A DNA stretch of 33,624 bases, taken from Chloroflexota bacterium. Lineage in GTDB: Bacteria; Chloroflexota; JAJPGV01. Where the stretch lies: NCBI GenBank assembly GCA_036844545.1, contig DAIUFO010000002.1:1-33624 (forward strand), read 5' to 3'. Below are positions 7,480-27,423 of this stretch, piece after piece. The stretch's first letter is position 1. Each line of letters starts with the position of its first letter. The position numbers were made by a program, and so were the translations under genes. Under the pieces are notes generated by a model. It was not told the DNA's origin. It saw only the letters and a program-made list of their open reading frames with translations, and made no database searches.

Positions 7480-7498
7480 CAATCTGAGCCTTCGACTC

Positions 7499-8434
7499 GT
7501 GCCGGCGCCCCCGCGCGACCCACGACATTTCTCACCCATATTCGTGCTGGCCACGGCCCGGTCGTTCTCCTCCGTGGTCACAGCGATGATCGGCCAGCAC
7601 CCGGACCTTGTTGGTCTTCCGGAGTTGAAGCTCTTCTGCTGCCGGACCATCGGAGAATTGGAGGCGTCGCTACCTCGGTACTGGATCGAGCGGGGAGTCA
7701 CCCACCGAAGTCCGGGATTGGTGCGTGCGGTAGCGGAAGTGGTGTTTGCCGACCAAGACCTTAACTCGCTAAACCGGGCTCTAGACTGGTTGCGGGACAG
7801 GCCCCACTGGTCCGGAGCAGACGTTCTCGACGTGCTGCTGGCCCGCTTGAGCCCGCGCACCGCCGTGGAGAAATCGCCCGACAATGTGTCCACCGACGCC
7901 TCTCTCGCGCGGATGGCCTCGGCCTACCCTGAGGCCCGCTACCTGCACCTCGCGCGACACCCCGTGAGCACGCAGCGCTCCATGCAGGAACATTGGGCCC
8001 GAACCGTACCTGCGTATTCCCTGGACAGTGAACCAATGTCGAGTATCTCCGCTTGGTATGACGTCAACTGCCGGATATTTCTTTTTGGCAGCGGGCTGCC
8101 ACCTGGCCGCTACATGCGTGTCAGGGGAGAGGATGTTCTCAACGACAGCGAGTCGCAGCTGCGAGCCATCGCGTCCTGGCTGGGGCTCCCTGCCGATCAC
8201 GGCGCTATTGAAGCCATGATGCACCCTGAAACGTCGCCGTTCGCGCGCTTCGGGCCGGTCGGCAGCGGGGTCGCCGGCGGGAACGATCCCAGATTTCTGT
8301 CCGATCCGGTACCCCATGGCGTGGCGCTGCCAGACACGCTGGAGCAGCCCCCAGGCTGGATAGGCGCATCCCTGTGGTCGATGGTGGTCGATCTGGCCTG
8401 TGCGCTCGGTTACCGTGACGAACGGACCACTTGA
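7499..8434 (+). CDS. Sulfotransferase-family protein
   Basis: PIFVLATARSFSSVV resembles the 5'-phosphosulfate-binding loop. ARYLHLARHPVSTQRS resembles the 3'-phosphate-binding RxPxD/S motif of PAPS-dependent sulfotransferases. The ORF track opens at 7442, overlapping the radical SAM stop. GTG 7499 is the first start after that stop, so the exact start is uncertain. Confidence 0.7.
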   Translation: MPAPPRDPRHFSPIFVLATARSFSSVVTAMIGQHPDLVGLPELKLFCCRTIGELEASLPRYWIERGVTHRSPGLVRAVAEVVFADQDLNSLNRALDWLRDRPHWSGADVLDVLLARLSPRTAVEKSPDNVSTDASLARMASAYPEARYLHLARHPVSTQRSMQEHWARTVPAYSLDSEPMSSISAWYDVNCRIFLFGSGLPPGRYMRVRGEDVLNDSESQLRAIASWLGLPADHGAIEAMMHPETSPFARFGPVGSGVAGGNDPRFLSDPVPHGVALPDTLEQPPGWIGASLWSMVVDLACALGYRDERTT

Positions 8435-8793: not shown

Positions 8794-10365
8794 GTGACCC
8801 CAGTCACGTATCCGGGCGTGTACATCGAGGAGCTGCCGAGCGGCGTCCGTACGATCACCGGCGTCTCGACATCCACCACGGCCTTCGTGGGGCGGGCGCG
8901 CAAGGGCCCTGTCGATATCCCGGTCGAGATCCACAGCTTCGGCGAATTCGACAGCATCTTTGGCGGTCTCTGGGACCAAGGTCCCATGAGCTTCTCCGTG
9001 CAGCAGTATTTCCTCAACGGCGGCCAGACCGCGGTCATAGTCCGCGTGGTGCATGGCGCGACGGCGACAGCGACGCGCTTCTCGATACCAGGTGGCGCCG
9101 GCGACCTGCTGCTGGACTCGTCCAGTCCGGGCGACTGGAGCAAGAATCTCCAGATAGCTATCGACACCAACACTTCGGATTCCGCCAATTTGTTCAATAT
9201 CACGGTGAGCGATCCGGGACCGCCCGCCGGCACCGGGTCCGGAGCATCCGAGATCATACGCAACCTCTCAGCCGACGTGACGTCGTCCCGCTTCCTCACG
9301 CCCATCCTGGCGCAGCAGTCCCGCTTCGTGCGCGTCGCGCCGGTAGCCGGCGCCATCCACAAACCAGATCCGACGGCCGTCGGGGCGCCTATCACATCGA
9401 CGTCGGCCGGCAGTGTGGCCGGGGGCGACGGCGACGCTATCCAGGATGCGGACGTCAACGATGCCGCCGGGCCTATCGGCAAGCACGGCATGTACGCTCT
9501 GGAGGATCAGGATATCTTCAACATCCTGGTCCTCTCGCCGCTGGACTTCGGCGCGGACGTCCAGGCTGGGACGTGGTCAGCCGCCGCGGGCTACTGTCGT
9601 GACCGGCGCGCCTTTCTCATCGTCGACCCGCCGGACGGGACCATCACGCCGCCCGCTACCGCCGCCAACAGTGGCTTCGCCGCACTCGCCGCGACCCTGG
9701 CGCCAAGCAGTCTGGAGGCTCAGTACGCGGCGTACTACTTTCCGCGCGTCATGGCCACCAACCCCCTTACCAGGGTCCCGCAGGAGTTTGCTCCTTCAGG
9801 CGCCATCGCCGGCATCTTCGCGCGCACCGACAGTGCGCGAGGTGTCTGGAAGGCGCCGGCTGGGCTCGAAGCCGGCATCAGTGGCATCCTGGACCTGGCG
9901 TACAACCTGACCGACGGCGAGAACGGCGTCCTCAACCCGCTCGGCGTCAATTGTCTGCGCACCTTCAACCTGATGGGCTCGGTCGTTTGGGGATCGAGGA
10001 CGGTGCAGGGCAACGATGCGTTGGCCAGCGACTGGAAGTACATTCCCGTACGCCGTCTCGCACTGTACATCGAAGAGAGCCTCTTCCGGGGGACGCAATG
10101 GGTGGTGTTCGAGCCCAACGACGAGCCCTTGTGGGCGCAGATACGCCTCAACGTCGGCGCTTTCATGCAGAACCTTTTCCGCCAGGGCGCCTTCCAAGGC
10201 AAGACGCCGCGCGACGCCTATTTCGTTAAGTGCGACGCCGAGACCACGACCCAGAACGATATCAACCTCGGCGTCGTCAACATTCTGGTCGGCTTCGCGC
10301 CGTTGAAGCCCGCCGAGTTCGTCGTGATCAAGATCCAACAGATGGCCGGCCAGGTCCAGGCTTAG
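8794..10365 (+). CDS. cis2: Contractile tail sheath protein (eCIS Cis2 / Afp2-4 equivalent)
   Basis: The N-terminus TYPGVYIEELPSGVRTITGVSTSTTAFVG and the C-terminal GVNCLRTFNLMGSVVWGSRT...KYIPVRRL are classic phage/eCIS tail sheath signatures. 523 aa. Strong SD. Confidence 0.95.
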   Translation: MTPVTYPGVYIEELPSGVRTITGVSTSTTAFVGRARKGPVDIPVEIHSFGEFDSIFGGLWDQGPMSFSVQQYFLNGGQTAVIVRVVHGATATATRFSIPGGAGDLLLDSSSPGDWSKNLQIAIDTNTSDSANLFNITVSDPGPPAGTGSGASEIIRNLSADVTSSRFLTPILAQQSRFVRVAPVAGAIHKPDPTAVGAPITSTSAGSVAGGDGDAIQDADVNDAAGPIGKHGMYALEDQDIFNILVLSPLDFGADVQAGTWSAAAGYCRDRRAFLIVDPPDGTITPPATAANSGFAALAATLAPSSLEAQYAAYYFPRVMATNPLTRVPQEFAPSGAIAGIFARTDSARGVWKAPAGLEAGISGILDLAYNLTDGENGVLNPLGVNCLRTFNLMGSVVWGSRTVQGNDALASDWKYIPVRRLALYIEESLFRGTQWVVFEPNDEPLWAQIRLNVGAFMQNLFRQGAFQGKTPRDAYFVKCDAETTTQNDINLGVVNILVGFAPLKPAEFVVIKIQQMAGQVQA

Positions 10366-10387: not shown

Positions 10388-10912
10388 ATGGCCCAGTTCA
10401 GCGTGAACCCTCAGCGCTTCGACCCCTACCAGAACTTCAAGTTCCGCGTCAAATGGGACGGCCGCTACGTCGCCGGGGTCAGCAAGGTGAGCGCCCTTAA
10501 GCGCACCACCGAGGTCGTCGAGCATCGCGAAGGCGGCGACCCGAGCACCGGCCGCAAGTCGCCCGGCCGCAGCAAATACGAGGCGATCACCATAGAGCGC
10601 GGCGTGACCCACGACACGGAGTTCGAGAAGTGGGCCAACAAGGTCTGGAACTTCGGCGCCGGGCTTGGCGCGGAAGTCTCCCTCAAAGACTTCCGCAAGG
10701 ACATCATCATCGACGTCTACAACGAAGCCGGCCAGCTCGCGCTGGCCTACAAGGTCTTCCGCTGCTGGGTGTCCGAGTTTCAGACCATCCCAGACCTGGA
10801 CGCCAACGCCAACGCCGTCGCCATCCAGCACATCAAGCTGGAAAACGAAGGTTGGGAGCGCGACGAGGCCGTCATCGAGCCCACGGAACCCAGCTTCACC
10901 ATCCCGGCATAA
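10388..10912 (+). CDS. cis1: Tail tube protein (T4 gp19-type; eCIS Cis1 / Afp1 equivalent)
   Basis: FDPYQNFKFRVKWDGRYVAGVSKVSALKRTTEVVEHREGGD...YEAITIERGVTHD matches the conserved phage tail region (tube) family. GAGGAGG at 10369-10375 precedes ATG 10388. Confidence 0.9.
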   Translation: MAQFSVNPQRFDPYQNFKFRVKWDGRYVAGVSKVSALKRTTEVVEHREGGDPSTGRKSPGRSKYEAITIERGVTHDTEFEKWANKVWNFGAGLGAEVSLKDFRKDIIIDVYNEAGQLALAYKVFRCWVSEFQTIPDLDANANAVAIQHIKLENEGWERDEAVIEPTEPSFTIPA

Positions 10913-11672: not shown

Positions 11673-12305
11673 ATGGCAGATGTCGCGCGTCCCCGGATCG
11701 AGCCGCTGTTCGCTAACGAGTCACGCGTGCAAGGGGACGCCGTCCCGAATGGCGCAGACGTAGACCTCGAGCTGCCCGCTGGGCCCTTGCCTCGGCCGGC
11801 GCGCCCGCGCAGCGCGCAGGCAGCGCCGCCGCGGCCGCTCGTATCGTCACTGGCCAGCGATGCCATGGAAGCACCCCTCGCGCCGGCCCGCCTTCATGTG
11901 AGGCCGCGGCGAGATGAACAGGCCCTTACGAGCGCGCGCGCCACCAGCCCGCTTGCAGCGGACGTCAGCAATCCTCGAGAATCGCGCCCGGGCTCGGAAC
12001 GGCACGAGTGGTTGCGGCCGGCGGGGGACGGACGCGAGAGCGACAACGCCAGCTTTGCCGCTCGCCCGACGCCGCTTGCATCCGACCACAATCCGCGAGC
12101 GGCCGGCGAGTCGCGGCCCGACCCCGGCCGGCAGGAGCGCCGGATGCAGGCCACCGCGCCACAACCGAGCGTTCGCGTCACGATCGGCCGCGTCGAGGTG
12201 CGGGCGGTCTTCCCGGCGCCGACGGCAGCGACTAGCCAGCCTCGACGCAGTCCCGAGCTTACGCTCGAAGACTACGTCAAACAGCGCAGCGAGGGACGGC
12301 GATGA
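11673..12305 (+). CDS. Low-complexity Pro/Ala/Arg-rich protein with an ordered C-terminal motif; candidate tape-measure-slot (Cis14-like) protein
   Basis: 210 aa from ATG 11673, mostly disordered-looking. It ends in VRVTIGRVEVRAVFPAP...LTLEDYVKQRS. The frame is open upstream to 11538 and encodes LTADFLSRLAERTLDG from CTG 11625, which overlaps the upstream stop as CTGA. There is no SD before ATG 11673, so the true start may be 11625. Confidence 0.6.
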   Translation: MADVARPRIEPLFANESRVQGDAVPNGADVDLELPAGPLPRPARPRSAQAAPPRPLVSSLASDAMEAPLAPARLHVRPRRDEQALTSARATSPLAADVSNPRESRPGSERHEWLRPAGDGRESDNASFAARPTPLASDHNPRAAGESRPDPGRQERRMQATAPQPSVRVTIGRVEVRAVFPAPTAATSQPRRSPELTLEDYVKQRSEGRR

Positions 12306-13522
12306 GCAACTTCCTCGCCATCGCCACCGTGACGGAGACGGTTCGCCAGCTCCTGCAAGCGGCGGTCGACGTGGATCTGCCAGGCACGACGGTGACGATG
12401 GCGCGGCCAGCGGACGACACCGTCGGGCCACAGGGCCCGCGCGTCAATGTCTTTCTCTACCGCGTCACACCCAACGCTGGCCTGCGCAACAACGACCTGC
12501 CAACGCGCCGCCCCGACGGCCAGCTGGAGGAGCGGCCCCAGACGGCGATCGACCTGCACTACCTGTTCAGCTTCTTTGGCGACGAGAGCCAGCTCGAGCC
12601 GCAGCGATTGCTCGGCACGGTCGTCCGCACGTTGCACGGCCAGCCGGTGCTGACGCGACAGACGATCGCCAGCGCCCTGGCCAGCACCACCTTCGGCTTT
12701 CTGGCCAGCTCTGATCTGGCAACGCAGCCCGAGCTGGTGAAGTTCACCCCGGCGGCGCTGTCGCTCGACGACCTGTCCAAGCTGTGGTCCGTCTTCTTCC
12801 AAGCGCCATTCGTGCTGTCCGTGACCTACGGGGCGACCGTTGTCCTCATCGAAGGCGGCGAAACACCCATGGCGGCGCTCCCGGTTCAGCGGCGCAACCT
12901 GCGCGTCCTGCCCTTCCGCCAGCCGTTCATCGAACGGGTGCTTGCCCAGGGCGGCCCCTCCGTGCCCATTGTCGCCGGCAGTGTGCTGTTGATCCGAGGG
13001 CAGCGGCTGCAGGGCGACGTCACCCTGGTGCGCCTCGCCGGCAGCCTGCTCACACCCGATTCCGTGACCGATACGGTTGTTTCGCTGACGCTCAGCGAGC
13101 CACCGCTGCCGGCGGGCGCGCTGCGTGCCGGGGTGCAAGGCGTCCAGATCGTGCAGCAGGTCCTTTTTGGCACCGCGGCCGATCCCCACCCCGGCTTCGA
13201 GTCAAACGTTGCGCCGTTCGTGATACACCCGTCCGTGACCGCGGTCGGTCTCGCCGGCAGTCTGGTCACGGTCAATGTCGACCCACCGGTGCGGGCCCGA
13301 CAGCGCGTCTCGTTGCTTCTGAACGAGCGCCTAGGAGCGCCGCCAGCGGCGCTGGTCTTCGCCACGCCGCCGCAGCCAGCCGACACCGCCGCGCCAGGGT
13401 TCACTGTCAGCGGCGTCGCGCCGGGCGAGTACTTCGTGCGACTCCAAGTTGATGGCGCCGAAAGCCCTGTCGATCTCGACCCGGCAAGCGCGCAATTCGG
13501 CCCAACGCTGACGTTCCCATGA
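12302..13522 (+). CDS. cis16: DUF4255 (Pvc16_N) protein, tail terminator/cap (Cis16 / Afp16 equivalent)
   Basis: MSNFLAIATVTETVRQLLQ...VNVFLYRVTPNAGLRNNDLP...IDLHYLFSFFG matches the DUF4255 N-terminal domain typical of eCIS loci. ATGA overlap with the upstream stop. Confidence 0.85.
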   Translation: MSNFLAIATVTETVRQLLQAAVDVDLPGTTVTMARPADDTVGPQGPRVNVFLYRVTPNAGLRNNDLPTRRPDGQLEERPQTAIDLHYLFSFFGDESQLEPQRLLGTVVRTLHGQPVLTRQTIASALASTTFGFLASSDLATQPELVKFTPAALSLDDLSKLWSVFFQAPFVLSVTYGATVVLIEGGETPMAALPVQRRNLRVLPFRQPFIERVLAQGGPSVPIVAGSVLLIRGQRLQGDVTLVRLAGSLLTPDSVTDTVVSLTLSEPPLPAGALRAGVQGVQIVQQVLFGTAADPHPGFESNVAPFVIHPSVTAVGLAGSLVTVNVDPPVRARQRVSLLLNERLGAPPAALVFATPPQPADTAAPGFTVSGVAPGEYFVRLQVDGAESPVDLDPASAQFGPTLTFP

Positions 13523-15486
13523 GCCTCCAGGCGGCGGCTGTGGAAACCTGGCAGGAGGCCAATAAACGCCACCTGGTGGCGGCGCTGGCAGGCGTCAAGA
13601 ATGCTCTCGAGCGCCACGCCGCTGGCGAGCCAACGCCGATCCTGACGGGCGCCCTGCCGGAGGCCGCGGGCGCCATTTCGCCGCCGCCGGCGCTCGATCG
13701 GCTGTGCACTGCCTTCAGCCTGACCCCGTTTGAGCGCGATGTCCTGCTGCTGTGCGCCGGCATCGAGCTCGAGTCCGGCTTTGGGTCGTTATGCGCGGCG
13801 GCTCAAGGCGATCCCCAGCGCGGCCAGCCGACCTTCAGCCTGGCTCTGGCAGCATTGCCGGACGCACACTGGAGCGCTCTGTCGCCGAGCGCGCCACTTC
13901 GCTACTGGCGTCTCATAGAGGTTGGCGCAGGCAGCACGCTGACGCTCAGCCCACTCCGCATCGATGAACGCGTGCTGCATTACCTGGCCGGCGTGCAGCA
14001 TATGGACGAGCGGCTTGCCGGCATCGTCGAAAGCGTGACGCCGGCCGAGGCTCTGCTGTCGCGGTCGCAACGCCAGGTCGCGGCGCTCGTGGCGGCAGTC
14101 TGGCGGCGAGGCCGAAGCTCAGGCCTCATCTCCTGTATTCAGCTGTGCGGCCCAGAGAGCGGAAGCAAGCGTGCGGTGGCGGCAGCCGCGTGCGCCGCCT
14201 CAGGGCTGAACCTGGCGGCCATTGCCGCCAGCAGCCTGCCAACGACGCCACACGAACTGGACGGCCTGATCCGCTTGTGGCTGCGCGAGGCAGCGCTCGA
14301 GGGCTGTGCGCTGTTGCTCGAGTGCGATGGCCTGGACTTCGCCGACGCAGCGCGCTCCGAAGCCGTGCGGCGCGTGATCGAGCAGGTCCATTCGGCGCTG
14401 ATTATCTCGAGTCGGGAGCGCCGGCCGGATGAGCCGCGGGGGCTGGTTACGTTCGAGGTCGGGCGGCCAGCCTCGAACGAGCAGGCCGACATGTGGCGGC
14501 AGGCCCTGGCGGAGACTGCGTGCGCGCCTGGGACGATCGAGGCGCTGGTATCCCAATTCAGCCTCGGCGCGCCCGCTATCAACGCCATTTGCGCCCAGGC
14601 GCTTGACCCCGACAAGAGCACAGCCGACATTCCCAAACGCTTGTGGGATGGCTGTCGCAGCCAGGCTCGGCCGCGGATGGAGGGCCTGGCGCGGCGCATC
14701 GAGCCTTCCGCAACCTGGGATGATCTTGTCCTGCCGGAGGCTCAGCTCCGTACGCTGCGCGAGGTAGCGGTGCACGTCCGGCAGCGAGCCAGAGTGTACG
14801 AGCAGTGGGGCTTCGCGGCCCGCTATGCCCGCGGCCTCGGCATCTGCCTGCTCGCTGCCGGCCCCAGCGGCACCGGCAAGACCATGGCCGCAGAGGTGCT
14901 GGCTAACGACCTGCAGCTCGACCTGTACCACATCGACCTGAGCCAGGTGGTCAGCAAATACATCGGCGAGACAGAAAAGAACTTGAGCCGCCTTTTCGAC
15001 GGCGCGGAGAGCGGGGCCGGCATCCTGCTGTTCGATGAGGCCGACGCGCTGTTCGGCAGGCGCACCGAGGTTAAGGACAGCCACGACCGCTACGCCAACA
15101 TCGAGATCAGCTATCTGCTACAGCGCGTGGAAGCGTATCGCGGCCTGGCCATCCTGACCACCAACATGAAAGACGCCCTGGACGCGGCATTCCTGCGGCG
15201 CATCCGGTTCGTCGTGCAGTTTCCATTTCCAGACGTGGCGCTGCGCACGCAGATATGGCGGCGCATCTTCCCCGGGCCCACGCCCACCCAAGACCTGGAC
15301 ATCGATCGACTGGCCCGCCTCAACCTCTCGGGCGGCAACATCCGCAACGTCGCCATGGGCGCGGCGTTCCTGGCGGCGGAAGCCGGCGCCGCGGTGGGTA
15401 TGCGGCACCTGGCCGTGGCCGCGCGGAGCGAGTACGCCAAGCTCGAAAAGCCGCTCAGCGAAGTCGAGATCGGGGGCTGGGTATGA
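13519..15486 (+). CDS. cis15: AAA+ ATPase (Cis15 / Afp15 / Pvc15 equivalent)
   Basis: Walker A GPSGTGKT at 14860-14883. Walker B ILLFDEAD at 15022-15045. A single C-terminal AAA+ module follows a ~400-aa N-terminal region, the architecture of eCIS ATPases. Confidence 0.9.
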
Positions 15487-15734
15487 ACATCGAGCTGCAC
15501 ATCGAGGAGCTGGTACTGCAGGGTTTCTCACACTCTCATCGGGGGGCAATTGGTCGGGCGATTGAAACGGAGCTGTCGCGGCTGCTGACCGACCGCGGCC
15601 TGCCCGCGTCCCTTTCCGGCGGCCGAGACGTGCGATCGCTCGATGCCGGCTCCTTTGTTGTGGAGCATGGCGCCCGCCCCAGCGCCATCGGAGCCCACGT
15701 GGGGCAGCTGCTTTACGAGGGGATGACCCGATGA
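15483..15734 (+). CDS. Small protein (83 aa) of unknown function, translationally coupled at both ends
   Basis: ATG 15483 overlaps the ATPase stop (ATGA). Its own stop overlaps ATG 15731 (ATGA). Product: [83 protein letters not shown]. In the ORF track it is hidden inside the 15255-15734 entry. Confidence 0.6.
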   Translation: MNIELHIEELVLQGFSHSHRGAIGRAIETELSRLLTDRGLPASLSGGRDVRSLDAGSFVVEHGARPSAIGAHVGQLLYEGMTR

Positions 15735-17653
15735 GCAGCTTCGTTCCTCTTGCCGTCAAACGCACCGCTGCGCCATCGTTCACGGCGGTCCGTGAGGGCA
15801 CCATTCAGCGCTGCGCCGCGGCGCCCTGTTCCGTGTGTTCCGCGCAAGAAGACGAGCAGTCGGTGATGCGCCAGCGCGCCTTCGTTTCCGGCGAGCCGCC
15901 GACGGTCCCAGCCATCGTCCGCGACGTCCTGCGATCACGCGGGCAGCCGCTGGACGCCGCCACGCGCGCCTTGTTCGAGCCGCGCTTCGGTCACGACTTC
16001 AGCGGCGTCCGCATCCACGCGGATGAGACGGCGGCGCGTGCGGCGGACGCCATCGGCGCGACCGCGTTCACGGTTGGCAGCTCGATCTCGTTTGGACGGG
16101 GCATGTATCAGCCGGGAACCGCGCCCGGACTGCAGCTCCTCGCCCACGAGCTGACACACACGGTCCAGCAGCGGGGCCGGATCGCCAGCGCGCAGCCGAG
16201 CCTCCGGGTGGGGGCAGCGAACGATGCCGCGGAGTCCACCGCCGAGCGGGTGGCCAACGCCGTGCTCGCCGGCCAGTCGATCCCGCGGATCGGCGCGACC
16301 GGCGCGATCATCCGCCGCAAGCCAAAGGTCTCGCCCGTCGCCAACGATCCGTCGCTGCGCATCGTCGAGATGGACAACGGGACTCGTTACCGCGTCAAGC
16401 GAACCGTCGAGTGGGTAAAGACGACGACCAAGCACTCCGGTGCGACCACCAAGTTCGGCGGAGACATCGACAAAGACAACGTCTGGATCCAGGTCGACCA
16501 CTGTGACGGCACGGGCGAGGTGAAGGTCAAGGTCGGCGCGAACATCCCCGCCGCCGCGCAGGATGTTCTGAAGAAAGCCGGCCAGGCAATCGTTGGTGGG
16601 GCCGACCCGGTTACGGCGCTCAAGGGTATCAAGCTCGAGCCGTTTGTGTCGGTCATCGTTGCCCAGTCTAAGAAGAGCAGCGTCACAGTGACTGGCAAGG
16701 TCACGACCGATATCGACAAGGGAAAAGTGACCGGCGGCGCCGCCGGCGTCACGGTAAAGGTGCCGGGCGCGGACTTCTCCCTGGAGGGAAAGATCGAGCA
16801 GGCGCCGCCAGGCCAAAAGCGTCCCAACTTCCAGGTGGGCGGCGTGGTAACCATCCCCCTTGGCAGTGGGCCGCCGAAGGTGGAGTGCCCTTCCTTCGAG
16901 CGGACCACCCAGGAGCCGCGGGTGAGCTACCAGTGCGAAAAGATTGTGCCCGAGCACGAGGAGGAGCGCACGCGCCCGGTCACTCGCAGCCAGACTCAGA
17001 GCTTCTACTTCAAATACGCAAGAAACGAGTTTGCAAAAAAGGGCCGCACTGCCGATCTCGACAACAACGCGAAGGCGGCTGTGACGGCGGCCTTGAAAGA
17101 CGGCTACAGGATCGTCTCAATCAGCGGCTACGCCTCGCCCGAAGGTCCCATGCCTCGGAAGACAAAGGGCTTTGAGGGCAACGAGGCGCTTTCGGCGGAC
17201 CGCGCAAAGGCAGCGGAAGACTGGGTCAAGACCGTCTGTCCGCCGCCTACAGCCCTGAGCATGCGGCCCAGCTGTTTCGCGGACGAATACCGAAGAGGCG
17301 AGCAGCATGAGCTTTATGGGAAGAAGAAAAACGAGCAAGGCGCGGAGGTGGGGCCGGAGCTCGAGGGCAAGGAACTCGAGACGTTCGCGGTGGGGCAGTT
17401 CGAGACGGAGGAAGCCGAGAAATCGCGGCGCACGCCGGACGTCATGGATGAACTGGCGAAGGGCAAGACGCCGGAGCGCCAAAAGGACACCGTTTACCCG
17501 CTGCTGCGCCGCGCTGAGATTACGTTGAGCAAGCAAGAGACGGAGACATACAAAGAAACCGTCAAGGAATCCAGCACGCCGGAGAGCTGTCCCCAGGACG
17601 TCATGGACGCCGCTGATGAGGATTTCGGGCGCGAGCCCCTGGTGAAGAAATAG
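15731..17653 (+). CDS. DUF4157 (HExxH zincin-like) protein with Lys-rich beta-strand middle region, OmpA-like C-terminal signature and K/E-rich tail; candidate eCIS cargo
   Basis: RALFEPRFGHDFSGVRIHADETAARAADAIGATAFTVGSSISFG...LLAHELTHTVQQ is the DUF4157 signature, with HELTH at 16145-16159. FYFKYARNEF...LDNNAKAAVTAALKDGYRIVSISGYASPEG...GNEALSADRAKAAEDWV (about 16988-17245) resembles the OmpA/MotB C-terminal peptidoglycan-binding motif. Confidence 0.85.
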   Translation: MSSFVPLAVKRTAAPSFTAVREGTIQRCAAAPCSVCSAQEDEQSVMRQRAFVSGEPPTVPAIVRDVLRSRGQPLDAATRALFEPRFGHDFSGVRIHADETAARAADAIGATAFTVGSSISFGRGMYQPGTAPGLQLLAHELTHTVQQRGRIASAQPSLRVGAANDAAESTAERVANAVLAGQSIPRIGATGAIIRRKPKVSPVANDPSLRIVEMDNGTRYRVKRTVEWVKTTTKHSGATTKFGGDIDKDNVWIQVDHCDGTGEVKVKVGANIPAAAQDVLKKAGQAIVGGADPVTALKGIKLEPFVSVIVAQSKKSSVTVTGKVTTDIDKGKVTGGAAGVTVKVPGADFSLEGKIEQAPPGQKRPNFQVGGVVTIPLGSGPPKVECPSFERTTQEPRVSYQCEKIVPEHEEERTRPVTRSQTQSFYFKYARNEFAKKGRTADLDNNAKAAVTAALKDGYRIVSISGYASPEGPMPRKTKGFEGNEALSADRAKAAEDWVKTVCPPPTALSMRPSCFADEYRRGEQHELYGKKKNEQGAEVGPELEGKELETFAVGQFETEEAEKSRRTPDVMDELAKGKTPERQKDTVYPLLRRAEITLSKQETETYKETVKESSTPESCPQDVMDAADEDFGREPLVKK

Positions 17654-17662
17654 GCCATCGCG

Positions 17663-18841
17663 ATGCTGAACCTGTCAGACATCGAGCCGAAGCAGCGAAC
17701 CGCCTCGAAGCATCAGGACGAGCGATCGCGCCTGCGCGGACGCGCCTGGGACGCGGAGCCGGCACGCGGCACGCGGCCGATCGTCCGGGACGTCGTAAGC
17801 TCAGCCGGCCAGACGCTCGATCCGCTGGCGCGTGCCTTCTTCGAGTCCCGGTTGGGTCATCACTTCGGCCACGTCCGCGTCCACACCGACGCGCGGGCCG
17901 CGGCTACGGCGCGGGCGCTTCGAGCGCAAGCCTACACCGTCGGGCCAGACATCGCCTTCGACACCGGGCGATACACGCCGCGGACGGCCGCGGGCCTCCA
18001 CTTGCTCGCGCACGAGCTGACCCACATCGTCCAGCAGGGCGCCAGCGCCGAGGTTCAAACGCTGGGAATGGCCGCCGTCGACAGTGACTCGGAACGGGAG
18101 GCCGCCAGGACTGCGGACCTCGTCGTAAGCGGTGGCCAGGTAGGCGGTATCTCTGCCCAGGGGAACGACGGCGTGGTTCACCGCGCGATCGGGGACGTCC
18201 TTGCGGGCGGGGCTCTCGGCGGTATCGCCGGCGCGGCGATCGGCTCGATCTTCGGGCCGATCGGGGCCTTGATCGGTGGTGGAATTGGCCTGCTGGCGGG
18301 CCTGGCGGCGGGCGAGGTCGCCGGGGCCCAGCGCCGAGAACTGACTGGCGACGAGCGGCGCGAGGCAGCGATTGTGTTCGGGCCCAGCCTCAACATGTCA
18401 ACGGTCCACGTCGCGGAGTCTTCAGTCATGGCCGTCGGGGGCTTTGCGCGAACGCCTTTCGACACCATCTATTTCCCGCCGGGCACGTCACGGCTTGGCT
18501 TTCCCGAATTCATGCCCTGGCTCATCCACGAGCTCACGCACGTTTGGCAATACCAGCACGGCGTGTCCGTAACGGAGAAGGTGTGGTGGGCGCTGCACGG
18601 CCAGTCTGCCTACGACTACGGGGGCGAAGCGGGACTCCGCGCCGCTGCGAGCCAGAACAAGCGCTTTACCGAGTTCAATACCGAGCAGCAGGCATCGATC
18701 GCGGCGGACTTCTACAAGGCCCAGCACGCGGGGCAGGACACATCCGCGTACGACCCGTTTATCGCGCAGCTTCGCGCCGGCGGCCGCACGGCTGGGGCCA
18801 CGACTGGTCCAGCTTCGCCAGCCAGCGGGGGCGGACGGTGA
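17663..18841 (+). CDS. DUF4157 (HExxH) protein with glycine-zipper membrane segment and a second HExxH metallopeptidase-like domain; candidate eCIS cargo/toxin
   Basis: ARAFFESRLGHHFGHVRVHTDARAA...LLAHELTHIVQQ, with HELTH at 18011-18025. Glycine zipper GDVLAGGALGGIAGAAIGSIFGPIGALIGGGIGLLAGLAAGEVAG (about 18188-18325). The C-terminal domain carries WLIHELTHVWQYQHG, with HELTH at 18527-18541. Confidence 0.85.
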   Translation: MLNLSDIEPKQRTASKHQDERSRLRGRAWDAEPARGTRPIVRDVVSSAGQTLDPLARAFFESRLGHHFGHVRVHTDARAAATARALRAQAYTVGPDIAFDTGRYTPRTAAGLHLLAHELTHIVQQGASAEVQTLGMAAVDSDSEREAARTADLVVSGGQVGGISAQGNDGVVHRAIGDVLAGGALGGIAGAAIGSIFGPIGALIGGGIGLLAGLAAGEVAGAQRRELTGDERREAAIVFGPSLNMSTVHVAESSVMAVGGFARTPFDTIYFPPGTSRLGFPEFMPWLIHELTHVWQYQHGVSVTEKVWWALHGQSAYDYGGEAGLRAAASQNKRFTEFNTEQQASIAADFYKAQHAGQDTSAYDPFIAQLRAGGRTAGATTGPASPASGGGR

Positions 18842-21819: not shown

Positions 21820-22184
21820 CCCAGGTCGATTTTCCTTATCACTTCGACCACCGCGGCCGTACGGCTAGCCCCGACGACCAGGACGCGCACGTCCGCGACC
21901 TCATAGAGCAAGTCCTGTTCACGGCGCCGGGCGAGCGCGTGAACCGGCCCGACTTCGGCTGCGGTTTGATGCAGCTGGTCTTCCAACCCAACAGCGTGGA
22001 CCTAGCCGCCGCTACCGAATTCCTCGTTCAGAGCTCGCTGCAGCAGTGGCTGGGCGACCTGATCCTGGTCGAATCGGTTCAAGTCGAAGATGAGGACTCG
22101 ACGCTGCGGGTCACGCTGCAATACGTCGTGCGACGCACCGAGGCCAGATCGGTGGCGCAGTTCACCAGGGGCAGCACGACGTGA
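21816..22184 (+). CDS. cis9: GPW/gp25-family baseplate wedge protein (Cis9)
   Basis: AHVRDLIEQVLFTAPGERVNRPDFGCGLMQLVFQPN...LVQSSLQQW matches the gp25/gpW lysozyme-like baseplate family. ATGA overlap upstream. In the ORF track it is hidden inside 21540-22184. Confidence 0.85.
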   Translation: MTQVDFPYHFDHRGRTASPDDQDAHVRDLIEQVLFTAPGERVNRPDFGCGLMQLVFQPNSVDLAAATEFLVQSSLQQWLGDLILVESVQVEDEDSTLRVTLQYVVRRTEARSVAQFTRGSTT

Positions 22185-24658
22185 TCGCGTTTTGCTGCGA
22201 CCGCCTGCGTCGCGACGCGGTCCAAGGCAGCGCCCTCAACGGCATCGACTACCTGGAGGTGCTCGATCTCGACGCGCCCACGCCCGCCGAACGCCAGCGC
22301 AGCCTGTTCGTGCACTTCATCAATGCGCCCGCTCCAGCCCTCACGCCCGGTAACGTCATCATCTCCGGGGGCGAGCGCGTGCGTGATATCCACGTCACCA
22401 GCGCCGCCGTAGACGGGACAGATTCGCACATCCTGGTGGTGAAAGTCGACCAGCCAGGCGACTTCTCCGTCTACACGCTCAACCTGGTGCAGGATGCGCT
22501 GCATCCACAGCCGCCAGCCGGCATCGACCCCGTGCTCTCAACGGTCGACTTCACCTTCAAGGCCGAGTGCCCAACGGATTTCGACTGCAAGCCGCTCACC
22601 TGGTGCCCGCCCGAACTGGAGCCGGCACCGGACATCGACTACCTGGCGAAGGACTATGCCAGCTTCCGGCGGCTGATGCTGGACCGCATGGCGGTCCTCG
22701 CGCCGCAGTGGCAGGAGCGCAACCCGGCCGATCTGGGTATCACCCTGGTGGAGCTGCTCGCGTTTGCAGGCGACTACCTCAGCTATCAGCAGGACGCCAT
22801 TGGGACCGAGGCCTACCTGGGCACGGCCCGCCGCCGCGTCTCAGTGCGCCGCCATGCCCGCCTGGTGGATTACGTCATGCACGATGGCTGCAACGCGCGA
22901 GCGTGGGTACAGCTGCAGGTGAGCGACGACGTCACCAAACCGCTGCCCGCCTCGCCGCCGCCGCTGCCCAAGGGCACGCCGCTGTGTACCGCTCTGCTCG
23001 GCCAGGGCCCGCTGCTTGCCAACCGCGCGCTCCTGGAGAAGGCCGACGTCGTGTTCGAGACGATGGACGACGTCCAGGCGCTGTTCAAGGATCACAATTC
23101 CATGTCCTTCTACACCTGGAGCGATCAGCAGTGCTGCCTGCCGACAGGTACGACCGAGGCGACGCTCAAGGGCCATCTCCCCCACCTGCAGCCAGGCGAC
23201 GTCCTCATCTTCGAGGAGGTGCTCGGCCCGCTTACGGGTGATGCCCCGGACGCCGACGCCAGCCACCGCTGCGCCGTGCGCCTCACGCTGGTGCAGGCCT
23301 TCGACGCCGCGAGCAATCCCCTCACCGATCTGTTGACTGGCCAGCCCGTTACCAGGATCGAATGGGGCGCTGAGGATGCGCTGCCCTTTCCGCTGTGTGT
23401 ATCCGCCCGCACCGACGCCCGCCATGGCGAGCGCTACGTGGAGGACGTGAGCGTCGCGCGCGGCAATGTCGTGCTGGTCGACCACGGTTTTACGCTCACG
23501 CCCGAGGACCTCGGCCTGGTGCCCGAGTCCCGCCTGTTCTTGCCGCCTAACGGTAGCGCCTGTAACCGCCAGGACCCTGTCGCGGTGCCGCGGCGCTTCC
23601 GCCCGGCCCTGAAGAGCGCCCCCGCCACCCAAGTCGCGCCGCTTGCTATGACTGTCCCGGCGTCTCGCGCCCTAATTTCGGACCCTCATGCTGCCCTGCC
23701 GGCCATTACTCTGGCGAGCCAGCTCAACGCCGACACCGTTCGTTGGGGGCCGCGGCTCGACCTGCTGAACAGCGGGCCCGACGACCCCGATTTCGTGGCG
23801 GAGGTAGAGGTCGATGGCACGGCCTACCTGCGCTTCGGCGACGACCAGCACGGCCGCCGGCCAGAGCCGGGCACAAAGTTCAGCGCCACCTATCGGGCTG
23901 GCAGCGGCGTGGCCGGCAACGTCGGCCGCGAGGCAATCAAGCACATCTTCCTCAACGAGCAGGCAATCATTGGAGTGCGTAACCCGATGCCCGCCCAGGG
24001 AGGCATCGAGCCCGAGTCGATGGAGGATGTGCGCCAGCGCGCGCCAAGCGCCTTCCGCACGCAGGAGCGCGCCGTCACCGAGGCCGACTACGCCGACGTC
24101 GCCCAGCGACGAGCCGGCATTCAGCGTGCCGCCGCTACTTTCCGCTGGACCGGCAGCTGGCACACGGTGTTCCTGACCATCGACCGCTTCGGCGGCCTCA
24201 CCGTGGACGATGCGTTCAAACAGGATGTGCGCGGCTTCGTCGAAGGCTACCGCATGGCCGGGTACGACCTGGAGGTAGACGCCCCGCGATTTGTCTCGCT
24301 CCGCATAGAGATGCAGGTTTGCGTCAAGCCGGACTACTTCCGTGGCGACGTGAAGGCCAGTCTGCTGGAAGTGTTCAGCAATCGCATTCTGGCAGACGGG
24401 CGGCGCGGCGTCTTCCACCCCGATAACTTCACCTTCGGACAGACGGTCTACCTCAGCCCGTTGTACGCCGCCGCCCAGGATGTGGCGGGCATCGATTCCG
24501 TCGACGTCACGGTCTTCGGCCGCATGGGCGTCAGCGACCCGACGCCGCTGCAGCGGGGTGAGCTGCTGCTCAGCCGCCTCGAGATTGCCCGTCTCGACAA
24601 CGACCCCAGCCTGCCGGAGAATGGCGTCTTCACGCTGACGGTAGTGGGCGGCAAGTGA
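22181..24658 (+). CDS. cis11: Baseplate J-like protein (T4 gp6 / P2 gpJ; Cis11)
   Basis: 825 aa. N-terminus FCCDRLRRDAV...NGIDYLEVLD. Core ...TEADYADVAQRRAGIQRAAATFRWTGSWHTVFLTIDRFGG is typical of putative baseplate assembly (Baseplate_J) proteins. GTGA overlap upstream. Confidence 0.85.
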   Translation: MIAFCCDRLRRDAVQGSALNGIDYLEVLDLDAPTPAERQRSLFVHFINAPAPALTPGNVIISGGERVRDIHVTSAAVDGTDSHILVVKVDQPGDFSVYTLNLVQDALHPQPPAGIDPVLSTVDFTFKAECPTDFDCKPLTWCPPELEPAPDIDYLAKDYASFRRLMLDRMAVLAPQWQERNPADLGITLVELLAFAGDYLSYQQDAIGTEAYLGTARRRVSVRRHARLVDYVMHDGCNARAWVQLQVSDDVTKPLPASPPPLPKGTPLCTALLGQGPLLANRALLEKADVVFETMDDVQALFKDHNSMSFYTWSDQQCCLPTGTTEATLKGHLPHLQPGDVLIFEEVLGPLTGDAPDADASHRCAVRLTLVQAFDAASNPLTDLLTGQPVTRIEWGAEDALPFPLCVSARTDARHGERYVEDVSVARGNVVLVDHGFTLTPEDLGLVPESRLFLPPNGSACNRQDPVAVPRRFRPALKSAPATQVAPLAMTVPASRALISDPHAALPAITLASQLNADTVRWGPRLDLLNSGPDDPDFVAEVEVDGTAYLRFGDDQHGRRPEPGTKFSATYRAGSGVAGNVGREAIKHIFLNEQAIIGVRNPMPAQGGIEPESMEDVRQRAPSAFRTQERAVTEADYADVAQRRAGIQRAAATFRWTGSWHTVFLTIDRFGGLTVDDAFKQDVRGFVEGYRMAGYDLEVDAPRFVSLRIEMQVCVKPDYFRGDVKASLLEVFSNRILADGRRGVFHPDNFTFGQTVYLSPLYAAAQDVAGIDSVDVTVFGRMGVSDPTPLQRGELLLSRLEIARLDNDPSLPENGVFTLTVVGGK

Positions 24659-27423
24659 CGAACACCAGAACGCCCTGCCCGGCCGGCATGTGCACCTGCG
24701 GCTGCTGCCTGGGCCTCACCGCCGTTACGCCGCTGCAGATCTACAACCGGCCAGGGCGCTCGGCCATCGCCTACCGGGCTGGCACCCAGCCGCTGTTCAA
24801 GCGCAGCATGCTGGCGGCCCTGTCCTCCTCGGACCACCCCGCGCTGGCCGCCCTCGGAAGCCGCGCCGACGACGACTTCTCGATTGCCCTGCTGGACGCC
24901 TGGGCCACAGTCGCCGACGTGCTCACGTTCTATCAGGAGCGCATCGCTAACGAATCCTACCTGCAGACGGCCACCGAGCGCCTCTCTTTGCTGGAGATGG
25001 GACGCCTCATCGGTTACGAGCTGCGGCCTGGCGTGGCGGCCAGCACCCACATCGCCTTCACGCTGGACTCCGGACCTGGCTCGCCAATGCAGACCACGAT
25101 AGACCCCGGCGTCAAGGTTCAGAGCATCCCCGGCCCCAACGAGAAGCCCCAAACGTTCGAGACCGTGGCCGGCATCCAGGCGCGCGTGGAGTGGAATGCG
25201 CTGACGCCGCGCCTGACCCGGCCTCAGGCCATCGATCGGACGACCCGCCAGCTTTACCTTGCGGGCACCGACACGCAGCTGCAGGTTGGCGACGGGATTC
25301 TGGTCGTTGGTCAAGAGCGGGAGGACGACCCGGGCAGCGAACAGTGGGACTTCCGCGTGCTGGAGAGCGTCCAGCGCGACTCCGATTCCGGCCACACCCT
25401 CATTGCCTGGAGCGAGCCACTCGGCGCCGCCGCGCCTCACGTCGTCAATCCGGCCAACCTGAGCCCCAGGCTCTTCGCGCTGCGCCAGCGGGCCGCGCTC
25501 TTCGGCCACAACGCGCCCGATCCCCTCATCCTCCACCTGGACGCGACCAGCCCGCTGCTGGACCACGGCCAGTGGAAAAACTTTGTGCTCGATGCGACCA
25601 AGATCGACCTTGACGCTGTCTATACCAAAGTCCTCGCCGGGAGCTGGGCCGTGCTCGTGAGCCCGACCCGCCGCGAGCTGTGCCGGGTGTCGCAGGTAAC
25701 CAGCCTTTCGGATTCGCGCTTCGCTCTCAGCGGCAAGTTCACCCGCATCGTGCCGGATGTACTCGAGCACGCCTCCTCGTTTGGCCTGCGGAGTACCACC
25801 GTCTTTGCCCAGAGCGAACAGTTGGAGCTGGTGGAGCGACCTGTAGCCGAGCCGGTCTACGGCAGCCACATTGCGCTCGGGCAGCTCGCGCCCGAGCTTG
25901 CGCCAGCTCAGACGCTGGCGTTGAGCGGCAAACGTCAGCGCCTTCGGCTCACCTTAAAGGCCAGGAACCTGTCCCTCACCTCGGGCAGTGGCGCCACTGC
26001 CCCCGTCCTCGCCGGCGATTCCCTGGAGATTCTGGCGCCACCCACGATTCCCGCCGGCGGCGCCGCGACAACGGCCATCTCACCCGACGACCTGGTGGCG
26101 GCGCTGGGCGGCAGCGTGCCCCAGACGATCGTTTGGCAACTTCGGGACAAGAACGGCTTCACCGGCAGCCTCACCGCCGGCTCCGACCAAGTGGCTCTGG
26201 CGAAAGCCGAAAAAGACGATGACGTCGTCAGCGAGCTTGCCTTTATCGACGGCGCCGCCGACGCCGTCTCACAGGACGGCAGCCAGACTGCCATCCAGCT
26301 GCGCGACGTGCTCGCCAATTGCTACGACCGCGAGACGGTGCGCATCAACGCCAACGTAGCGTCCGCCACCCATGGCGAAACGGTGCCCCAGGAAGTGCTC
26401 GGTGCCGGCGACGCAAGCCAGACCTACCAGCGTTTCACGCTCAAGCAGCCGCCCCTCACGTACGTCAGCGCCTCCACCGCCAGCGGCGCCCGATCTACTC
26501 TGGAAGTCCGCGTGAACGACCTGCTTTGGCAGGAGGCGCCCAGCCTTTACAGCCAAGGGCCGCGGGATCGTGTCTACGTCACGCACACCTCTGACGACGG
26601 CAAGACCACGGTGGAGTTTGGCGATGGCAGCAACGGCGCCCGGCTGCCCAGCGGCGCGGACAACGTAAGGGCGAAGTATCGAAGGGGCATCGGCCTCGAA
26701 GGCGTCGTCAAGGCTGGGCAGCTCAGCCAGCTCATGACACGGCCTCTCGGTGTCAAGGACGCCATCAACCCCGAAGCCGCCACCGGCGCCGCTAACCCGG
26801 AATCGCCCGCCGACGCCCGCCGCAACGAGCCGCTCACCGTGCTCACACTGGATCGCGCCGTATCTCTGCTGGACTACGAGGACTTCGCCCGCGCCTTCGG
26901 CGGCGTCGCCAAGGCGCGGGCGAGCTGGAGTTGGGACGGCCTGGAGCGGCGCGTGTTCGTCGTTGTCGCCGGGCCCGGCGGGGCCGCCATCCCGCAGGAC
27001 AGCGACACGTTCATGAACCTGGTCGCTGCCCTGGCGTCCGCCGGCGACCCATTCGTCAGCTTCAGCGTCAAGTCGTACCGCGCGGTCACGTTCAGGCTCG
27101 TCGCGAACGTCAAGGTGGACGAGCCCACCTACGTGCGCACAAACGTTATGGCCGCGGTTGAGGCCGCACTGCGCGAGCGCTTCTCTTTCGAAGCGCGCTC
27201 CTTCGGCCAGCCCGTCGTGCTCAGCGACGTCATCGCTGCCATGCAGGACGTAGCCGGCGTGGTGGCCGTGGACGTCAACAAGCTCTACCGCGGCGACGCC
27301 GCGCCGGCTCTGAACACTCGCCTGACCGCTGCGAAGACGGCGCCGGACGCGGCCGGAGCGCTCCAGGCCGCCGAGCTCCTGACGCTCGACCCGGCGCCGC
27401 TGGGGCTGGGGGTGATGACATGA
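24655..27423 (+). CDS. cis12: Second large baseplate assembly protein (gp7-like; Cis12)
   Basis: 922 aa. N-terminal Cys cluster CPAGMCTCGCCLG, then IYNRPGRSAIAYRAGTQPLFKRSMLAAL. Also ATHGETVPQEVLGAGDASQTYQRFTLKQPPLTYVSA...LEVRVNDLLWQE. This is the common paralogue that follows Baseplate_J in eCIS loci. GTGA overlap upstream. Confidence 0.8.
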   Translation: MTNTRTPCPAGMCTCGCCLGLTAVTPLQIYNRPGRSAIAYRAGTQPLFKRSMLAALSSSDHPALAALGSRADDDFSIALLDAWATVADVLTFYQERIANESYLQTATERLSLLEMGRLIGYELRPGVAASTHIAFTLDSGPGSPMQTTIDPGVKVQSIPGPNEKPQTFETVAGIQARVEWNALTPRLTRPQAIDRTTRQLYLAGTDTQLQVGDGILVVGQEREDDPGSEQWDFRVLESVQRDSDSGHTLIAWSEPLGAAAPHVVNPANLSPRLFALRQRAALFGHNAPDPLILHLDATSPLLDHGQWKNFVLDATKIDLDAVYTKVLAGSWAVLVSPTRRELCRVSQVTSLSDSRFALSGKFTRIVPDVLEHASSFGLRSTTVFAQSEQLELVERPVAEPVYGSHIALGQLAPELAPAQTLALSGKRQRLRLTLKARNLSLTSGSGATAPVLAGDSLEILAPPTIPAGGAATTAISPDDLVAALGGSVPQTIVWQLRDKNGFTGSLTAGSDQVALAKAEKDDDVVSELAFIDGAADAVSQDGSQTAIQLRDVLANCYDRETVRINANVASATHGETVPQEVLGAGDASQTYQRFTLKQPPLTYVSASTASGARSTLEVRVNDLLWQEAPSLYSQGPRDRVYVTHTSDDGKTTVEFGDGSNGARLPSGADNVRAKYRRGIGLEGVVKAGQLSQLMTRPLGVKDAINPEAATGAANPESPADARRNEPLTVLTLDRAVSLLDYEDFARAFGGVAKARASWSWDGLERRVFVVVAGPGGAAIPQDSDTFMNLVAALASAGDPFVSFSVKSYRAVTFRLVANVKVDEPTYVRTNVMAAVEAALRERFSFEARSFGQPVVLSDVIAAMQDVAGVVAVDVNKLYRGDAAPALNTRLTAAKTAPDAAGALQAAELLTLDPAPLGLGVMT

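Follow-up and report, generated by a model that had tools for sequence, protein, structure and literature searches.

A gene at positions 15731 to 17653 on the + strand of a 33,624-nucleotide stretch of DNA from a Chloroflexota bacterium (contig DAIUFO010000002.1 of assembly GCA_036844545.1; the whole stretch is termed the window) was found to encode a three-part protein, with a DUF4157 head, a beta domain and an OmpA-like domain, within an operon for an extracellular contractile injection system (eCIS). On balance, this protein is probably a conserved eCIS cargo or effector of the class represented by Cgo1 and Cgo2, which would be delivered to a bacterial envelope and held at the wall by its OmpA-like domain. 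This reading is supported by the match of the head to DUF4157 (E value, 6.7e-31) in an operon that also encodes sheath, tube, Pvc16, AAA+, spike, gp25 and baseplate-J proteins, by the recurrence of the three-part protein beside an ATPase gene and/or a second DUF4157 gene in related loci, and by the precedent of the DUF4157 proteins of AlgoCIS, which are lumen cargo. The identities of the domains, the OmpA-like fold and the conservation of both architecture and eCIS context were observed; localisation, ligand and any toxicity are inferred.

The open reading frame (ORF) had been reported in a first-pass annotation of the sequence, and its existence and its coding capacity of 640 amino acids were confirmed, as was the presence of a DUF4157 head. 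This domain occupies amino acids 73 to 149 (15947 to 16177, + strand) and was identified by a match to PF13699, the family formerly named DUF4157 and now called the eCIS core domain, with a score of 106.7 bits against a gathering cut-off of 22. The HExxH zinc-binding motif is present as HELTH at nucleotides 16145 to 16159 (amino acids 139 to 143), as annotated, and H139, E140 and H143 were invariant in 40 homologues. A conserved linker follows the zincin motif (amino acids 150 to 195; 16178 to 16315, + strand) and contains an IRR-KPKVSPV segment and the invariant residues E168, A171 and A175 (alignment A1). The region upstream of DUF4157 (amino acids 1 to 72; 15731 to 15946, + strand) is poorly conserved and variable in length across the family in the same alignment. 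As the N-terminal regions of Cgo1 and Cgo2 of AlgoCIS are needed for loading, this region is a candidate loading sequence by analogy. A family consensus of QRxCxC...CxxC precedes DUF4157 in about 26 of 40 members of alignment A1; residues C28, C33 and C36 (amino acids 28 to 36; 15812 to 15838) are a remnant of this motif, which may be a short knuckle that binds metal in the part of the protein presumed to serve loading. No signal peptide or transmembrane helix was detected in the protein (maximum 19-residue Kyte-Doolittle hydropathy, 1.23), and neither PADLOC nor NCBIfam gave a match for this protein or for the product of the following gene, termed the partner.

The window contains one long eCIS operon on the + strand, and 19 of 20 related loci were likewise located in or beside an eCIS gene cluster. 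The nearest large gene on the 5′ side encodes an AAA+ ATPase of the Pvc15/Alg15 type (13519 to 15486, + strand; Pfam AAA E value, 6.2e-25, plus a winged-helix domain), which is presumed to be the loader of the cargo, and its adjacency to the gene for the DUF4157-OmpA-like protein is kept in related loci. The partner gene (17663 to 18841, + strand), which encodes a second DUF4157 protein with a glycine zipper and a VgrG2b-like metallopeptidase domain, begins 9 nucleotides past the stop codon of the target gene. In nearly all of the 20 related loci the three-part gene adjoined an AAA+ ATPase gene and/or at least one further DUF4157 gene. These loci came from genome bins of delta- and gammaproteobacteria, Actinomycetes, Chloroflexota, Acidobacteriota and Bacteroidota; in one of them, the DUF4157 pair was placed upstream of the regulator and sheath genes. 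The start codon of the target gene overlaps the stop codon of a small upstream ORF (ATGA), with GAGGGG located 8 nucleotides upstream; this overlap couples the gene translationally to its upstream neighbour.

A search with amino acids 190 to 640 detected 42 proteins with identities of 27 to 63%, all of which carried an N-terminal PF13699 domain except for a 292-amino-acid fragment and a 481-amino-acid protein. The source names of these relatives were only "hypothetical" or "DUF4157". In the full-length alignment, the invariant positions included the HExxH motif, C258, S313, C386, C402, Y426 and C620, together with S469, E471 and G472 of an SPEGP segment, N484, L487 and R491 of a GNxxLSxxRA segment, and P590, R593 and R594 of YPLLRRAEI. 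When a profile of amino acids 405 to 640 was compared with 1.84 billion representative proteins, 256 clusters were detected at an E value of 1e-3 or lower and 82 at 1e-30 or lower. The head, beta and OmpA-like parts occurred together in 104 of 186 collected proteins; the remainder were mostly of the "beta-OmpA" or "OmpA-only" type, including many short sequences that are probably fragments derived from short contigs.

The placing of the three-part gene beside an ATPase gene and a second DUF4157 gene matches that of AlgoCIS, whose cluster contains two DUF4157 genes with products, Cgo1 and Cgo2, that have been shown to fill the tube lumen. The disordered N-terminal regions of these proteins are required for loading, and DUF4157 itself is dispensable. 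In both systems, two adjacent DUF4157 genes are located near an AAA+ ATPase gene in an eCIS cluster, and their products follow the same plan of an N-terminal region, DUF4157 and a variable C-terminal part. Cgo1 carries a second metalloprotease-like domain, as does the partner in the window. The two systems differ in that the C-terminal part of the target protein consists of the beta and OmpA-like domains; the likeness is one of architecture, and lumen localisation and loading have been shown for Cgo1 and Cgo2 only. A DUF4157 protein of Streptomyces davawensis, which copurifies with proteins of the baseplate, is an effector that is ejected.

The C-terminal region is well supported as a divergent OmpA-like fold by structural modelling and profile comparison. 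An AlphaFold2 model of amino acids 405 to 640, built with 29 aligned relatives, had a mean predicted local distance difference test (pLDDT) score of 90.4 and a predicted template modelling (pTM) score of 0.78. In a Foldseek search of PDB with this model, the best 27 matches were all OmpA/MotB-type peptidoglycan-binding domains, and those below rank 27 were noise. These matches, with probabilities of up to 1.0, target-normalised template modelling (TM) scores of 0.5 to 0.64 and E values from 3e-3, included PorE (6TOP), Acinetobacter baumannii OmpA (3TD3-5), OprF (5U1H), RmpM (1R1M), FopA1, MotB, MotS, TagL (5M38) and ZorB. Comparison of the family profile by hhalign with E. coli OmpA-C and Pal (sequences from NC_000913.3) gave a probability of 81%. 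After deletion of the columns of a K/E-rich insert, the probability was 85% and the alignment extended over the entire domain, with RRAEI opposite RRVEI of OmpA.

The first part of the domain (amino acids 405 to 530; 16943 to 17320, + strand), as delimited by AlphaFold2, Foldseek and hhalign, consists in order of strand 1 (FYFKY), helix 1, strand 2 (GYASPEG), a lengthened loop, helix 2 (GNEALSADRAKAAEDWV), a loop with C503 and C515, and strand 3 (ELYG). An earlier range of about 16988 to 17245 for an OmpA-like signature was roughly correct: the peptides FYFKYARNEF, GYASPEG and GNEALSADRA were located at 17003 to 17032, 17126 to 17146 and 17177 to 17206, respectively, and all of the other peptides quoted in the first-pass annotation were also found at or near the places assigned to them. 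The segment GNEALSADRA (amino acids 483 to 492) provides the N-x-x-L-S-x-x-R-A helix, with N484, L487 and R491 invariant. In OmpA of A. baumannii, diaminopimelate is held by two residues, Asp271 and Arg286, and R491 is the invariant counterpart of the latter. The target domain shares with PF00691 domains (3TD5, 6TOP, 5U1H, 1R1M and 5M38) the fold, the N..LS..RA helix, the binding Arg and a last strand of the form RR(A/V)EI. It differs from them in its unusually long strands, a 55-amino-acid insert, the replacement of the binding Asp by Ser, a loop lengthened by 7 residues, the lack of an export signal and its position on a putatively delivered protein.

The last ~120 amino acids had previously been described as a very Lys/Glu-rich tail. 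The composition was borne out (18% Glu and 11% Lys), but the region is not a tail: its K/E-rich part (amino acids 531 to 585; 17321 to 17485, + strand) is a helical insert that separates strand 3 of the OmpA-like fold from its last strand. This insert contains 22% Glu and 14.5% Lys. The AlphaFold2 model placed four helices at model residues 142 to 188 (approximately amino acids 546 to 592), followed by a long strand starting from RRAEI and by a final helix. The last strand and C-terminal helix occupy 17486 to 17650 (+ strand); YPLLRRAEI (17495 to 17521) is prolonged into a long hairpin, and the helix holds the invariant C620. The K/E-rich stretch is missing from two family members (P0040 and P0041), in which the region of the LSxxRA helix leads almost directly to RRAEI. 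Its absence from these proteins and the full-domain hhalign alignment obtained without it identify the K/E-rich region as an enlargement of the site at which OmpA-like domains usually carry insertions. In E. coli OmpA, extra residues with two cysteines (CDNVKQRAALIDC) occur at this same site, between strand 3 and the last strand. The cysteines C503 and C515 of the target domain were both present in 31 sequences (including three that were misaligned) and both absent in 9, and neither was ever found singly.

Between the linker and the OmpA-like domain lies a Lys/Thr/Val-rich all-beta domain of ~210 amino acids (amino acids 196 to 404; 16316 to 16942, + strand) in which C258, S313, C386 and C402 are invariant. 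Peptides such as VKVKVGANIP (16520 to 16549) and SVTVTG...EGKIE (16679 to 16798) had suggested strand-like repeats. No internal repeat was detected by hhalign self-comparison of the domain or by TRF (Tandem Repeats Finder) analysis of the DNA, and the region is merely rich in beta strands. AlphaFold2 yielded an all-beta model with a pLDDT of 82 and a pTM of only 0.54, comprising ~13 strands, several of which are 13 to 18 residues long, and one long helix; no known fold was matched. Foldseek searches of PDB and BFVD with this model gave nothing credible (TM scores of at most 0.29; root mean square deviations mostly of 14 to 50 Å). The top ranks in these searches were occupied mostly by proteins with long beta hairpins, namely MACPF, cholesterol-dependent cytolysin and gasdermin pores and outer membrane barrels, which is to be read as a lead only. 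A relationship with the barrel of E. coli OmpA was rejected, the hhalign probability being 0.3%. A profile search of a word-indexed database with the beta domain gave just 2 matches and was uninformative.

The OmpA-like module was also detected on other scaffolds. Exoproteins of the two-partner secretion (TPS) type with YDG repeats, one of them from a Gammaproteobacteria genome bin (L021:6746-10606; also P0082 and P0086), end in an OmpA-like module with the insert, and a subtilase-containing protein (P0142) carries the same module with the insert at its C terminus. In these proteins the module has the signature YFDY...GFASPEG...GNESLSGRRA...YPQLRRAEI, and DUF4157 and the beta domain are absent. 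The same C-terminal module thus occurs on different delivery scaffolds, in the manner of polymorphic toxins.

The partner protein matched the eCIS_core family of Pfam with an E value of 2e-34, and its amino acids 193 to 370, which include an HExxH motif of their own (HELTH), matched the effector domain of VgrG2b (PDB 6H56; E value, 1.4e-10). A hydrophobic glycine-zipper segment is located at amino acids ~179 to 215 (hydropathy scan score, 1.85). The C-terminal domain of the partner was also found beside homologues of the target protein in at least four other loci (L002, L011, L014 and L015). VgrG2b, of the H2 type VI secretion system of Pseudomonas aeruginosa, is a DUF4157-class metallopeptidase that is toxic in the prey periplasm; it shares with the system described here an HExxH domain of this class and, as proposed for the latter, contractile delivery and action in the periplasm of prey. 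The C-terminal domain of the partner is a direct homologue of VgrG2b, whereas the C-terminal part of the target protein is unrelated to it, and a PDB sequence search with the target head detected nothing significant. A DUF4157 cargo of Parabacteroides is toxic only when supplied with a periplasmic tag.

Taken together, the evidence points to the periplasm of bacteria as the place where the protein acts. That the body of the target protein works in the periplasm or on the exterior is suggested by the paired and invariant cysteines in a protein without an export signal, by the match of the partner to VgrG2b, by the dependence of the Parabacteroides cargo on a periplasmic tag, and by the presence of the module at the end of TPS exoproteins, which transit the periplasm. 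In the proposed mechanism, the protein would be synthesised in the cytoplasm, its N-terminal region would be recognised in a step assisted by the neighbouring AAA+ ATPase, and packing into the tube lumen would follow. Contraction would then expel it into the envelope of a target bacterium, where the cysteine-paired body would fold in the oxidising periplasm and the divergent OmpA-like domain would hold the protein on peptidoglycan by means of N484, L487, R491 and the remodelled S469-P-E471-G loop. The protein may act alongside the VgrG2b-like periplasmic metallopeptidase partner.

Several observations weigh against delivery of a wall-held cargo and have to be set beside the alternatives. The Pfam OmpA profile scored 16.5 bits, below its gathering cut-off of 27.2 bits; weak matches to it were detected in 17 of the 29 relatives (best E value, 2.4e-4), and all of the family members were sub-threshold. 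The ligand-binding Asp of G-x-T-D is replaced by an invariant Ser469 (GYASPEG), with the invariant E471 two residues further on, and the binding loop is 7 residues longer. The OmpA-like domain previously called from its signature was upheld by fold and profile alignment, but the signature itself is incomplete. Peptidoglycan binding cannot be assumed because of the invariant Ser and the longer loop, and is regarded as plausible. Furthermore, no function could be assigned to the beta domain by Foldseek against PDB and BFVD, the presence in particles and the toxicity of family members are predicted from the genes themselves, and the family follows the core machine in its inheritance and does not show the variation of typical toxins, with no immunity gene seen. 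One alternative is that the OmpA-like fold has an altered function and no longer binds peptidoglycan, its ligand being a different one or else a protein (the partner effector, the tube or the ATPase, for instance), with the protein still an eCIS cargo. The sub-threshold scores, the invariant Ser, the lengthened loop and the 55-amino-acid helical insert are all in keeping with such a change, and the invariant SPEGP points to a family-specific site. Nevertheless, N484, L487 and R491, the core of N..LS..RA, and the RRAEI strand are invariant, and the module is also carried by TPS exoproteins, which cross the periplasm. When the profile of amino acids 405 to 640 was compared with PDB sequences, E values of only 0.3 to 0.8 were obtained and two of the three matches were OmpA/MotB-like, which is suggestive and no more; the top match (MotB-like 8vvi; E value, 0.3, which is not significant) also has a Ser and a longer loop (GHTSS..EG). 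An altered ligand is considered unlikely, though it is the alternative to which we would give most weight.

A structural or anchoring role, in which the protein is not a delivered effector and instead tethers the particle or baseplate to the cell wall in the manner of TagL or TssL, or serves as a lumen plug or assembly factor, would also fit the inheritance with core genes across phyla and the lack of an evident immunity gene. Further points in favour of this role are that in several loci the gene keeps a fixed site, flanked by the ATPase gene and the baseplate module, and that TagL is among the structural matches. An immunity gene may be needless for a toxin confined to the cytoplasm of its producer; the gene that follows the module is the second DUF4157 effector gene in the window and a TPR-rich ORF of 701 amino acids in L021, and in neither case was a recognisable immunity gene seen. 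The absence of a signal peptide or transmembrane segment places the wall of the producer out of reach before lysis, and wall anchoring in the producer was judged unlikely for a protein without an export signal. The gene is also not always part of the structural block, being placed upstream of the regulator in some loci. The DUF4157 proteins investigated to date are either carried in the lumen or ejected as effectors, and the module holds the C-terminal "toxin" position in TPS proteins. A structural role is considered distinctly improbable. The first-pass annotation had offered either a bacterial target, in the periplasm or cell wall, or an anchoring role; the former is plausible for the envelope in view of the VgrG2b-like domain of the partner, and the latter, in the producer, is not favoured. 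A more specific form of delivery was also entertained, in which the beta and OmpA-like domains would together act as an envelope-stapling or pore-forming effector in a diderm periplasm. The long amphipathic beta hairpins would enter a membrane and the disulfide-locked OmpA-like domain would clamp peptidoglycan, mimicking or competing with tethers of the OmpA/OprF/Pal type, and this module would be shared by eCIS and two-partner secretion, which are unrelated routes of delivery. This idea is speculative and is held to be slightly less probable still than the structural role.

The target gene had also been described as a compositional outlier, with a tail acquired separately from the operon. Spot values of G+C content behind this description were correct (0.50 for the 60 nucleotides from 17281 and 0.73 for the 60 nucleotides from 12001). 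For the whole gene, however, the G+C content of 0.649 and the G+C content at third codon positions (GC3) of 0.816 matched the values of 0.649 and 0.813 that its amino acids and the codon usage of the operon predict, and the description as an outlier was not confirmed. The region encoding amino acids 405 to 640 had a G+C content of 0.610 (expected, 0.627) and a GC3 of 0.771; this G+C content is in the lowest 3.5% of equal-sized windows, low but within the range of the whole stretch, and above that of a radical-SAM gene (0.601). There is a sharp change in Lys usage at approximately amino acid 190, with one Lys in amino acids 1 to 190 and ~10% thereafter, and K/(K+R) values of 0.0 to 0.1 versus 0.63; in nucleotide terms, 15731 to 16300 stands against 16301 to 17650. 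Across the family the head is Lys-poor (0 to 4 Lys versus 7 to 16 Arg) and the body is Lys-rich in most members, with Arg used throughout in a minority; the contrast between head and body is a family trait in amino acid use and not a signal of foreign DNA. Elsewhere in the window, the tube, CIS_tube, spike and g19860 proteins had K/(K+R) values well above those of the rest of the operon. The low G+C content of the 3′ part, the change in Lys usage and the portability in principle of the OmpA-like module, seen on TPS proteins, are what could be expected if a lower-G+C cassette had recently been fused onto a DUF4157 head in this operon. Separate acquisition is contradicted by the occurrence of the same architecture, including the insert, across phyla, by the family-wide Lys contrast, by the agreement of whole-gene G+C content and GC3 with expectation, and by the ATGA overlap, which ties the gene to the operon. 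No repeats or mobile-element scars were found between 15700 and 17700. Horizontal acquisition of the 3′ part was rejected on the basis of GC3, amino-acid-expected composition and family-wide architecture, and a recent fusion of this kind is deemed highly improbable.

Upstream of the ATPase gene are genes for the sheath (8794 to 10365, + strand), a gp19-type tube protein (10388 to 10912, + strand) and a Pvc16-like cap (12302 to 13522, + strand). Between the ATPase gene and the target gene lies a small ORF of 82 amino acids (15486 to 15734, + strand) that overlaps both through its start and stop codons and had no family match in Pfam, PADLOC or NCBIfam. ORFs similar in size were observed at the same position in one related locus (L004, 8584 to 8799) and near the start of the operon in two others (L001 and L002), and no sequence similarity to these was detected by tblastn. 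On the 3′ side of the partner gene, a baseplate block encodes a CIS tube-family protein, a spike OB-fold protein, gp25 and two Baseplate_J proteins. The latter are large consecutive paralogues of 825 and 922 amino acids (22181 to 27423, + strand). Further downstream, the end of the window contains genes for a Tail_X protein and for a protein of 1,092 amino acids with a DUF6519 domain and a right-handed beta helix (29528 to 32806, + strand), which is likely to be a fibre or receptor-binding component. Directly 5′ of the sheath gene are a radical-SAM enzyme gene and a sulfotransferase gene (6265 to 7479 and 7442 to 8434, + strand). These are unusual accessories to head an eCIS operon and have a GC3 of 0.71 to 0.74, below that of the core genes. 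A Transposase_29/DDE gene is located upstream (1816 to 4113, + strand). Between 13000 and 20000, no promoter-like sites were detected and terminator-like sites did not exceed chance expectation.

DUF4157 is an established marker of eCIS-associated toxins, and fusions of DUF4157 with OmpA are already known among predicted toxins of this type. In the catalogue of Danov et al. (2024), a peptidoglycan-binding domain is present in 68 predicted eCIS toxins, and entries annotated "DUF4157,OmpA", among them proteins of Candidatus Accumulibacter, appear in Dataset EV4. An earlier statement that a cell-wall-binding module is unusual in this setting was, in light of this catalogue, too strong. In the same study, 983 of 1,130 DUF4157 predicted eCIS toxins had no other annotated domain. 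The listed "DUF4157,OmpA" toxins resemble the target protein in having a DUF4157 head fused to a domain of a cell-wall-binding type in an eCIS locus. The OmpA domains of those toxins are recognised by Pfam, and the target family is set apart from them, by description, by its sub-threshold score, the Ser in place of Asp, the helical insert and the additional beta domain. Distinctive of the family are an OmpA-like domain undetected by Pfam, Ser for Asp, a 55-amino-acid helical insert and a beta domain that always lies ahead. The family does not reveal a new principle. These results provide a widespread and uncharacterised DUF4157 family with a fold for its C-terminal third, in which an apparent tail proved to be an insert. 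They also provide a hint as to what this eCIS lineage may target.

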